Shown here piece by piece: positions 6,709 to 13,934 of a stretch of DNA of 64,000 nucleotides. Source of the stretch: Gekko japonicus (lineage: Eukaryota); the NCBI RefSeq assembly GCF_001447785.1, contig NW_015171566.1:3568-67567 (forward strand). The letters are read 5' to 3'. Positions within the stretch are counted from its first letter, which is position 1, and the number at the start of each line of letters is the position of its first letter. The notes under the pieces are model-generated. The model saw only the letters and a list, made by a program, of their open reading frames with translations, made no database searches and was not told the DNA's origin. The position numbers were made by a program, and so were the translations under genes.

Positions 6709-9700
6709 ATGGCTGCCAAGGATTATGACCACTTGTTCAAACTACTCATCATTGGGGACTCTGGTAAGGACTCCTCTCACGCCCAGCGCCCTCTCCTCCT
6801 TCCTCTGCTTCCTTGTTCCCCCCCTCACCACCACCACCACATCTTTCTGTCTCTGCTCATTTTCTCATTCTTCACCCTCCAGTTTTACTCATGTCCTTTA
6901 TTAAAACCAACAATATCCATTTCTCCCCCCCCCCTCCCATGGTGACTTTCTGTGTTCCATCTCCTTCTGCAATTCTGCTCGCTTCCTACCTTCCCGGTAT
7001 GGTTATATTTGGTTTTCTCTGGACCATCTTTAAACCTCATTCTTCTTCATTCTGTAAAGTCTTCTTCCGTTTTTTTTTTATTTTGTTCTAACACCCCCCC
7101 CCCCGCAACCAGCGGCCTACTTCTTGTTTCTCTCCTCTGTGCCAGCTGACATTCTCAGGCAAGTATAATGAGCTAATCCAAGGTAGCTGCTGATGTTCAG
7201 AGTAATGGATAAAGTCGACATGGTTGTGTCGTTCTGTCTCATTCTTTCAAGTTTCTACACCACACAATCCCTGGAGGAGATGCTTAACCAAAAGCTAAAT
7301 TTTGGGTTTGTGCTGGCTTGAGAAAATGCAGGTCGTCTTGTTCCCCACGTCTCGGTTGGACTAGAGCAGTGGTGGCGAACCTATGGCACGGGGGCCAGAG
7401 GTGGCACTCAGAGCCCTCTCTGTGGGCACGCGTGCCATCGCCCCAGCCAGGCCCAGACCATCATTAAAGTGTCGAATTCTCTGCCAAATAATTTTAAGTA
7501 AATGAAAGCATTTGGGATTGCTTTCCTTTACTTTGTTTGGATCATCTTAAGTTAATGTATGAGTTGTTTTTTCCTAAAGTAAAACCTCAGTATTCAGGTT
7601 AAATTGCCGTGTTGGCACTTTGTGATAAATAAGTGGGTTTTGGGTCGCAGTTTGGGCACTCGGTCCCTAAAAGGTTCGCCATCACTGGACTATAGAGAGT
7701 AGGATTCCCAGCATTCTTTGGGTCTGATTGTGCCAACTTGTGTGCGGCCTGCCACCTGCCAGCATTCACAGGTAGCTTTTTGGGGTAGGGAAACGGGCCT
7801 TGTCAGTTCACTAAGCGGATCCCATTTTACTCTGAGGTGGGATGAATTAAACTAAAGCCAACCAATGTTCATGCAGTTGACTTTTTAATTGCTTCGTAAT
7901 GTCACAGCCCAGCCACTCAATACTTTGGTAAGTTTTAGAAAGCTTTTTCTCACAGTCTGGCAAGTTCTTGCCGGGAACCAGGTTTCTGGGTTACCAGGGA
8001 AACGGCAGCTTCCTTCAGAGGGCTCAAAGGCTTCCAGTTTTCATTGGCCACAATTTCCCCATCGTGCTTAACAAAAAAGAAAACTATAAAAAACAATTTA
8101 AAATGTTCAGAAAAAAAGAAAACTGATGTGAAAATTTAGAGTTTCACGACCAAGGTTGTTGGCTGATTCTCATAGTATCAGATCCAGCACCACGAGGCAA
8201 CGGTGTGGATGTGGGATTCTTGAACACGGTGGGAAGGAAACTACTGTCCTGTCCTGCACTTTTATCCTACTTTTCAGATTAAAAAAATGGCCTCCCAAGG
8301 CAGCTCACAGCTTTTCAACTTCCCTGGGCTGGCAGGGGAATGTCTGAATGAAAACCAGGCAGGCCTTGCCCTGAGCCTTCAGAGGCAAGAGAAGGGCCGT
8401 GCGGAGGTAGGAGATCAGTTTGGGGAGGCCAGAAGCAAGTGAGCCGTTAAGAGGCCACAGAAGCCAAGCTGTTTTTCCCTTGCCGGCATGGAAGTAGCAG
8501 TGCCATCCCCCAGTGTCCCTTGGTCTTTCGGTGGGTGAGAGGAGCCCCCCCCCGCCCTGGAGGAAGCTGGAGCAGAGTTCTCTCTGGCCCGAAGAAGGGA
8601 AGCAACTTCTGTGCAGTCGCTCCTCTGGCTGTTAGCTGGGGACAGGCTGATCTTGCCCTTGCTGTGGAAGGGAGCTGTGCAGGGCTGATTCTTTGGCCAA
8701 GCATCCGCTTGGGACAGCACAATGACTGATGCACTGCGGGGAAACAGCTTCCCGGCCATCGGCAGTGCTGGAGGTGATGAGCGTCGCCTCCTGGATCCAT
8801 CCTGGCCAGGTCCAAGCCGAGCCCCTTGGCTTGGCCCAGTGAGTGTGCTTTGCTTGGGGGGGGGGTGTCCGGCTAGTCTTAAACCAGTCCTGGAGGGGCG
8901 TCAGCCCGGCTGGGATCCCTGGCTGGTTGGCTCCTGAGTGATCAGCCCCTTCTGAGGTCCCTGCCTCTCGCTTTCCTAGTGCTGATCAAGACACCTCTAG
9001 CTCAGCACGGCAGCTTTGAACTTTTTTGGGGGGGGGTGTCGGTCAGGAGGTTGTGGCAGGAGGTAGGCCTCATGGTTAGGGGTGCCAACTCTGCAGTGGG
9101 AAGTTCTTGGAGATGTAGAGGGTGGAGCCTAAGGAGGGTGGGATTTGGGAAGGACCTCAGCAGAGTAGGATGCCACAGAGTCCACCCTCCGAAGCTGCTC
9201 TTTTCTCCAGGGGGAACTGGTCCGTTGCCTAGAGATCAGCTGTCATTCTAGGAGACCTCCAGGCTGGCCCGAGGCTACAGCGGGGCTAATGGGGGCTCTG
9301 CCCCCTTCCTGAGAGGGCCGCCCCCCACTTCTTCTCAAAAGCATTTAAAGGATCCCTTTCAGTGCTTTTGAGAAGAAGCGGGGGTGGGGGTGCGCGCCCC
9401 TCTCCTCCCCCCCTGCAAGATTTAAAGGGCCCTAGCAGGAGGGGATGGAGAGGGGGCACACGCCATCCCCCTTCATCGTGGCAAATAATGGCAGCCCCAC
9501 CAGAAAAAAGATTTGCCCCACAATCCACAAAATCCTGGCTACGGGCCTGTCTCCAGGCCCCCGTCTACTTGGGAGCCCTGCTTGTTGGGCCCCCACACGT
9601 TGTAGCTGCTTTTCTGTGAGTCATGCAAACAGATTTGGATGGATGGAGTGGCAACCCAGGGGGCCCCATCTAGTGCCAGGAGACTCAGATCTTTCCAGGG

Positions 9701-12700: not shown

Positions 12701-13934
12701 CTTGGGTGAGTGGCTCACGGGGGGGGGGGGGGAACCTGGCCCCCCTCTCAATTGGGNNNNNNNNNNNNNNNNNNNNNNNNNNNNNNNNNNNNNNNNNNNN
12801 NNNNNNNNNNNNNNNNNNNNNNNNNNNNNNNNNNNNNNNNNNNNNNNNNNNNNNNNGTGTCCGGCTTGTGGGAGGTGGGGATGGGGTGTTGGGGCAACAA
12901 CAGGGTTTGGGTGGTGTGGATTTGGGGCTGTTGTGAGGACATAAGGTATAGATCTATTTAAACAGCCAAAATCACACCGCTGTCCCTGGCTACCCAGCTG
13001 CGCGGAGAATGTCTTCTGGAGGAACATCAGGGCGATTCCTGTATGACAGTCTTGATACAAGATTGCTGCAGTCCTCAAAACCAGTGCCAGATTGCTGTGG
13101 CTTTTTCCAGATAGGAACGGTAGCACACTGCATCATCCATGCAGTTGGGAGAATGCCCATGATGAGCATGCAAGTGACTCATGCAAGTGATATGACCGCA
13201 AGCTGGCTATTCTTTGTATAATGGCATCCTAGCATGCCCCCGGGCTCAGCCATATCAAGTGAAAGGGTGAACTCCCAGCCAGTTAGACCAAGCTTGTGGA
13301 AAGTGTCTTTATTGCTCCCTAGTACAAAGAATCTACATATTCTGGTTAAGATGCCAGAGGATACAGTGGAGCAAATCCTTCACCTGGATGCAGGATAAGG
13401 CCTATCCTGAGAAATGTTGTGGTCTGCAGATGTCAGGATGTAGTTCTGGTTTGTGTGTTGAACTTGAATCACTGCACCGTCCTTTGGGAGCTTCTCATTC
13501 AGTTTTGTTTCGTTCTGTTTGCTCCCCAACGTTCAGTGGGCAACAAATGTGAAGACCCGTCACGGAAGCAAGTGGACACGGCTGACGCCCGGCGGTTTAG
13601 CGAGCAGATGGGAGTGCGGCTCTTTGAGACGAGCGCTAAGGAGAACCTCAATGTTGAAGAGGTACTGGATGGCGGCGGGGCATTAGTGGTGCTTAGGGGA
13701 CGTTCCTGGTTGCCTGAACAACACGCTTCTCAGTCTGCCTGAGGGGGGGGGTTGCTTGTGAGGAGGTTAAGCCCCTCTGCTCAGTTCTCTCTCCCCTTAC
13801 CCCAGATGTTCAACGCCATCACAGCCATGGTGCTCCGGACCAAACGGGAAAACCTAGCGCGACTCCAACAGCAAAACGAGGTGGTCAAAATCAACAAGCC
13901 CAAGAAGAAACCGACTGTCAAGAAATGCTGCTGA
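6709..13934 (+). CDS. Ras-related protein Rab-35-like (divergent RAB35 paralog), 6 exons: 6709-6763, 10774-10824, 12159-12282, 12581-12705, 13537-13661, 13806-13934; 202 aa
   Basis: Spliced translation [50 protein letters not shown]...[22 protein letters not shown]...GNKCED...FETSAK...[12 protein letters not shown]. All introns are GT-AG, 609 nt in total, with G1/G2/G3/G5 boxes, a polybasic tail and a CC prenylation motif. Too diverged in the C-terminal half to call RAB35 itself. Confidence 0.93.
7367..7687. mobile_element. hAT-Charlie MITE (TIR CAGTG(G/A)TGGCGAACCT)
   Basis: TIRs and TSD gactagag/gactatag; near-identical copy at 60850-61168. Confidence 0.88.
11576..11990 (-). mobile_element. 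CR1 LINE 3' end; second copy at 62563-62830
   Basis: (CATAAGAA)n-like antisense tail, then ttggatcaggccaa..ccatctagtcc and the C-terminal coding segment (gtgaagaagtactttctttt). Confidence 0.75.

Follow-up and report, generated by a model that had tools for sequence, protein, structure and literature searches.

The 64,000-nucleotide stretch of the Gekko japonicus assembly analyzed here (contig NW_015171566.1, positions 3,568 to 67,567; "the window") carries, at window positions 6709-13934, a second RAB35 gene, which is a real, expressed and ancient paralog of canonical RAB35 that had already been catalogued. Taken whole, the reading we favor, with a probability of about 0.82, is that of an intact, spliced RAB35 paralog retained from sharks to lizards beside BICDL2, likely derived from an early vertebrate whole-genome duplication and likely acting as a prenylated Rab35-type switch in endocytic recycling. 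The core of an earlier, sequence-only reading of this DNA, that a second RAB35, ancient and with introns, lies here in linkage with BICDL2, is borne out by a canonical copy elsewhere in the genome, a well-supported paralog clade and an adjoining BICDL2 exon.

The gene has six exons with GT..AG introns throughout, and its 609-nucleotide (nt) spliced frame encodes 202 amino acids plus a stop, with no internal stops. All five splice joints were recovered from raw RNA reads in each of three runs, all from a single study; in exon order, the joints were covered by 102, 165, 48, 70, and 157 reads in run X21, by 30, 51, 15, 24, and 60 in X20, and by 8, 16, 1, 10, and 15 in X22, where joint 3 was thus seen in one read only. 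A contig from a fourth run, X11, also holds the spliced form. At least three coding differences, all synonymous, were found among the rows listed. The predicted protein is identical to XP_015275252.1 (P0213), whose source label is Gekko japonicus "Rab-35-like." A minor splice from an upstream donor (window position ∼6363) to exon 2 at 10774, seen in seven reads of X21 and one each of X20 and X22, omits the start-codon exon and would delete the start of the P-loop. The short duplication in intron 3 (Table 1) is likely an assembly artifact, and a 506-base contig with a 100% identical copy of exon 3 (G000:C91815:192-314; L002) is likely a redundant haplotype fragment.

Membership in the RAB35 subfamily is supported by the top solved-structure match, human Rab35 (3tw8, E-value 2.2e-98), with Rab1B far behind (1.4e-65). 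The Ras-type G domain is intact (PF00071, E 9e-60), with complete G1 (8/8) and G5 (5/5) motifs and a G4 motif of the NKxE/D form. The N-terminus, switch regions, polybasic tail and CC end by which the gene was originally recognized as RAB35-type are all present in the translation, including the four motifs singled out at that time, and the terminal CC and seven basic residues in the last 17 are common to the paralog and canonical RAB35.

A genome search with exon 3 returned 24 matches: the window itself, the 506-base contig (100%), a locus on contig C15649 (90%), and other Rabs at ≤69%. Canonical RAB35 (G000:C15649:1303846-1320831, 201 amino acids) lies on a different contig from the paralog. 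The window gene is thus not a relocated ortholog; relocation was an outcome that the sequence-only reading had named as fatal to its proposal. The introns of the canonical gene follow nt 52, 103, 227, 352, and 477, compared with 55, 106, 230, 355, and 480 in the paralog; all five fall at the same codons with the same phases (1, 1, 2, 1, 0), the offset being one extra N-terminal codon, as a duplication at the DNA level would leave them. The two Gekko proteins are identical at 156 of 199 residues (78.4%), four-fold sites differ at 35 of 56 (close to saturation), and the GC content at third codon positions (GC3) is 0.70 in the paralog vs. 0.58 in the canonical copy. Identity is concentrated in the P-loop (8/8), switch I (16/16), G3 plus switch II (19/20), and G5, and is lower in the interswitch (12/16) and tail (15/29). 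Lizard and shark proteins are 88.6% identical for the paralog vs. 94.5% for canonical RAB35; judged from such protein comparisons, the paralog evolves about twice as fast as RAB35, yet remains constrained.

Homolog searches covered the best 120 of 457 and the best 120 of 1514 rows, and a cluster look-up covered 15 of 43 members. Among the matches listed, paralog members were found in chimaera, sharks, rays, bichir, sturgeon, bowfin, teleosts, coelacanth, lungfish, all three amphibian orders, turtles, and squamates, and no bird, crocodilian, or mammal was named. In a tree of 55 full-length rows chosen from ∼290 proteins (fragments, isoforms, and near-duplicates omitted), the 25 paralog rows formed one clade (support 100/98) confined to jawed vertebrates, with both copies present in catshark. 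Forcing the squamate paralogs to group with the lizard canonical copy was rejected (p-AU 0.00025), so the gene is no recent squamate duplicate. Dated by this tree, the duplication predates the split between sharks and bony fish; its lower age bound, younger than invertebrate Rab35, rests on there being no invertebrate row in the paralog clade. As a separate observation, two or more divergent Rab35 copies occur in lampreys (P0137, P0288, P0178, P0187), none with the asparagine at position 80 that marks the paralog (see below).

These results leave almost no room for the alternatives that the gene was duplicated recently within squamates, is a retrocopy, has decayed into a pseudogene, or is an ortholog that moved: no point in favor of any of these was found, and the paralog is closer to its shark counterpart (88.6%) than to the RAB35 of its own genome (78.4%). 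Retrocopy and pseudogene are excluded by the five conserved introns, the spliced RNA, and the open frame; for the retrocopy, the presence of introns had earlier been taken to indicate as much. Orthology to canonical RAB35 was also rejected, given the separate clade and the position of the canonical copy beside a BICDL1-like gene.

The gene is not a new discovery. In Hara et al. (2018, BMC Biol 16:40; PMC5901865), XP_015275252.1 is listed as an "elusive" Rab-35-like gene paired with RAB35 (Additional file 9/Table S10, rows 158-159; group AmnPhylome_0001070_sub_001), with orthologs in two alligators, two turtles, four squamates (including anole, python, and garter snake), Xenopus, zebrafish, and stickleback. 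Of the elusive genes listed, 263, this one included, have an early-vertebrate paralog, and such pairs are treated there as products of two early genome doublings. The word "rab" does not occur in the main text, so that the gene is known there from its table row; other Rabs classed as elusive in Table S10 (rows 51, 66, 380, and 773) comprise two Rab1-like genes, a Rab37/26-like gene, and a Rab7-like gene.

The same row lists no mammal and no bird ortholog after a deeper search that took in transcriptomes as well as 112 mammal and 68 bird gene sets (PMC5901865). The loss in mammals put forward by the sequence-only reading is therefore in line with both that search and the matches listed here, and in that search extends to birds. 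The paralog would have been lost in mammals and, separately, in birds, because alligators keep it (PMC5901865). We consider it improbable that the gene persists in birds (or monotremes), hidden in GC-rich, poorly assembled chromosomes. Its higher GC3 would fit such an explanation, as would the fact that 157 of 469 elusive genes, when searched for more deeply, turned out to have bird or mammal orthologs (PMC5901865), but that same search recovered none for the Rab-35-like gene, and no bird or mammal row fell in the paralog clade among the matches listed.

To compare the two loci, 157 kb of the paralog contig was aligned with 100 kb around canonical RAB35, with repeats masked. Leaving aside Rab exons and remnants of repeats, a single coding match was credible, a coiled-coil exon on the plus strand ∼3.3 kb left of the window (C11856:172-297). 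All 50 of its database matches lie in or near BICDL2, 43 of them bearing that name, and in the genome it has exactly two matches, one beside the paralog and one 27 kb downstream of canonical RAB35 on the opposite strand; the gene at the latter position, facing RAB35, is read as BICDL1. The remaining parts of BICDL2 are on contigs C2848 and C7246, and a full-length BICDL2 query gave 13 matches, none of them right of the window. The proposed partnership with BICDL2 thus holds as linkage, but BICDL2 lies upstream of the paralog and not beyond the right edge of the window as had been suggested. In the assembly it is also on the same strand as the paralog, and the pair is not convergent, contrary to the expected orientation. 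That orientation depends on the scaffold, in which a gap of 2.6 kb lies between the BICDL2 exon and the window; for the 3' end of BICDL2 at the left edge it rests on the assembly. Paralog and BICDL2 were found on contigs of equal size in 13 of the 17 named species for which both have rows (squamates, one turtle, and two caecilians), some of these contigs being scaffolds of 220, 346, and 490 kb. The four exceptions come from rows in which several species or assemblies are pooled and only the longest contig is displayed. Linkage of the paralog and BICDL2 is conserved.

We infer that whole-genome duplication is the likely origin of the paralog, without assigning it to a round; the RAB35-BICDL block would have been duplicated whole in an early vertebrate genome doubling. 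A segmental duplication of a local RAB35-BICDL block before the shark-bony fish split, outside any genome doubling, predicts the same tree and the same intron pattern, and is compatible with the single flanking paralog pair. We regard it as rather unlikely, since the timing matches the doublings and the pair is filed among early-vertebrate paralogs (PMC5901865). The human 12q24 and 16p regions share many further paralog pairs, such as MMP17/MMP25, SRRM4/SRRM2, and ATP2A2/ATP2A1, which would also speak against a local event.

Several observations weigh against the reading favored here. BICDL1/BICDL2 is the one flanking paralog pair demonstrated, and no second pair emerged from the 157-kb vs. 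100-kb comparison. The orientation of BICDL1 and BICDL2 differs between the loci, and therefore at least one inversion is needed. Contigs of equal size indicate linkage and not adjacency where they are chromosome-size. At the base of the tree, canonical copies formed no supported clade apart from invertebrates, and cyclostome copies joined the paralog only loosely (92/89); a clade of jawed vertebrates only was neither shown nor rejected (p-AU 0.15). Finally, absence from mammals and birds rests on the best 120 rows of each search, 15 of 43 cluster members, and the 2018 search.

The roles of the Rab35 tail, of DENND1, and of TBC1D10 are established. Against this background, the retained sequence features suggest that the paralog likely works as Rab35 does in endocytic recycling, as a prenylated GTP switch on the plasma membrane and recycling endosomes that would use the Rab35 machinery, because Thr76 and Thr81, switch I, nearly all of switch II, the P-loop, tail charge, and CC are retained. 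The CC would be geranylgeranylated and the polybasic tail would target the membrane. From the near-complete identity of switch I, G3, and switch II given above, we predict that DENND1-type exchange factors activate the protein and that it binds effectors of Rab35, ACAP2 and OCRL among them. Thr76 and Thr81 decide ACAP2 binding by Rab35 (PMC4862332, PMC6358971). Thr72, too, is retained, and within residues 62-81 the sole change is at Gly80, where Asn occupies 25/25 paralog rows and Gly 30/30 other rows, a fixed switch II change. Further near-fixed paralog residues are Pro at 93 (21/25), Lys at 115 (23/25), and Met at 167 (24/25).

Because Asn80 is fixed in the paralog and absent from all other rows, an altered choice of partners through the Gly80-to-Asn change is possible. 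In its full form, the proposal is that a gene of the same origin acquired new partners, with Asn80 and changes in the interswitch and helices 3-5 redirecting effector, exchange-factor, or GTPase-activating protein choice, so that it would no longer be a functional Rab35. The near-fixed residues fit this, as does the lethality of a zebrafish rab35a/b double knock-out, reported from an F0 experiment (bioRxiv 2022.01.13.476231), even though the paralog is listed as kept in zebrafish, where it is for this reason not a full back-up. We nevertheless find such a switch of partners doubtful: apart from residue 80 in switch II, both switches, the P-loop, and the tail charge are as in RAB35, expression would account equally well for the failure to rescue, and loss in two lineages fits dispensability. 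The favored Rab35-type function would probably be only partly redundant with that of RAB35, the two copies differing mainly in where they are expressed. A bolder form of the partner hypothesis, that jawed vertebrates except mammals and birds possess a distinct Rab that has been conserved for >400 million years and in which Asn80 beside the ACAP2-binding threonines gives its own effector or regulator set in a recycling route dropped by both warm-blooded lineages, also strikes us as unlikely.

Table 1. Exons of the RAB35-like gene and neighboring features (window positions).
Feature	Position	Strand	Remarks
RAB35-like 5' untranslated part, exon 1	6514..6708	+	Spliced X11 contig starts at 6514, with reads in bins 6000-6932; exon start at least that far 5'
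RAB35-like coding exon 1	6709..6763	+	Codons 1-18, phase 1; joint to exon 2 in RNA
RAB35-like coding exon 2	10774..10824	+	51 nt, size equal to canonical exon 2; end of P-loop, start of switch I; RNA joints
RAB35-like coding exon 3	12159..12282	+	124 nt; switch I, interswitch, G3, most of switch II including Thr76 equivalent; RNA joints
Short duplicated stretch in intron 3	12520..12580	.	Repeats acceptor region; skipped by reads (joint 12282 to 12581)
RAB35-like coding exon 4	12581..12705	+	125 nt; Asn at position 80, Thr81, helix 3; RNA joints
RAB35-like coding exon 5	13537..13661	+	125 nt; G4 and G5 motifs; most divergent part of G domain; RNA joints
RAB35-like coding exon 6	13806..13934	+	Helix 5, polybasic tail (7 basic residues in last 17), CC, stop; RNA joint
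RAB35-like 3' untranslated region	13935..15081	+	Continuous read depth; read ends near 14458 and 15081; AATAAA near 15072; end approximate
HCFC1R1, last two coding exons, convergent with Rab gene	15949..16389	-	16228-16389 matches PF15226 (E 1.8e-6); 15949-16140 without Pfam match, assigned by position
THOC6 exons, gene may extend further	20917..26447	+	21706-21807 matches 7apk_F (E 5.2e-14); other exons from splice scan

The gene order at the paralog is BICDL2(+), RAB35-like(+), HCFC1R1(-), THOC6(+), followed by a Mab-21-domain gene, ZG16, and TNFRSF12A, all on the minus strand. Profile and structure matches upheld the naming of HCFC1R1 and THOC6 as downstream neighbors (Table 1), the THOC6 exons outside the matched one being putative. 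The multi-exon Mab-21-domain gene (29759-38572, minus strand) matches Mab-21_C in its last exon (PF20266, E 2.2e-10). Its first exon, with no Pfam match and no significant structure match, has a motif resembling the nucleotidyltransferase signature of cGAS-like proteins, except that its first acidic residue is replaced; the gene is possibly a cGAS-like receptor or TMEM102-type gene, neither of which is known at the corresponding human place. A ZG16-like lectin exon (3apa_A, E 1.8e-10) and, upstream of it, a likely signal-peptide exon lie on the minus strand at 46581-46712 and 50984-51061. A TNFRSF12A-like transmembrane exon (L036:4450-4581, minus strand; C11856:71949-72080) matched PF12191 just under the cut-off (E 7e-5) and fits the human 16p13.3 block. 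Eight further exon candidates had no Pfam match.

Canonical RAB35, which had been expected beside GCN1 and BICDL1, has the BICDL1-like gene, but upstream lie paxillin exons on the opposite strand (G000:C15649:1206138-1230986, minus strand), and GCN1 was not located; genome profile searches with PF15226 and PF12074 gave no matches, but their controls were likewise silent, so that this negative carries no weight. In the human order, GCN1 and RPLP0 stand between paxillin and RAB35 on the same strand; relative to it, the strand and position of paxillin suggest a local rearrangement.

The RAB35-like paralog appears unstudied, and the overall significance of these results is modest. Within the literature searched, with subscription journals and preprint supplements largely outside it, we found no study devoted to the paralog and no paper naming "dkey-16l2.16"; the supplements of PMC10208646 held no mention of it, bioRxiv 2023.07.24.550339 proved a false match, and a vertebrate Rab35 duplicate is unmentioned in the accessible part of Klöpper et al. 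(2012; PMC3425129). For work on Rab35, the paralog is a third copy to consider in zebrafish, where one study speaks of "both" rab35 paralogs (bioRxiv 2022.01.13.476231), and a second in Xenopus. Many database "Rab-35" entries are in fact this paralog, and the Gly80-to-Asn change offers a natural probe of effector choice by Rab35.

Compared with the Hara et al. (2018) row, which has no coelacanth or gar member, draws on a species set without cartilaginous fish, and for which we found no synteny or residue analysis of the gene, what we add is the Asn80 signature, the linkage to BICDL2, and members from cartilaginous fish, coelacanth, and lungfish. Teleost si:dkey-16l2.16 and the RefSeq "Rab-35-like" models, whose names are automatic, belong to the same clade as the window gene, the teleost members having an altered acidic-basic tail; teleost rab35a and rab35b are distinct from si:dkey-16l2.16 and group with canonical RAB35. 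Relative to vertebrate RAB35 (human; PDB 3tw8, 6if2, 6ekk), the paralog has the same exon structure, P-loop, switch I, Thr72/76/81, polybasic tail, and CC, with 141 of 170 G-domain residues identical, but differs in Asn for Gly80, in a divergent helix 3-5 region, and in having no poly-Gln run.

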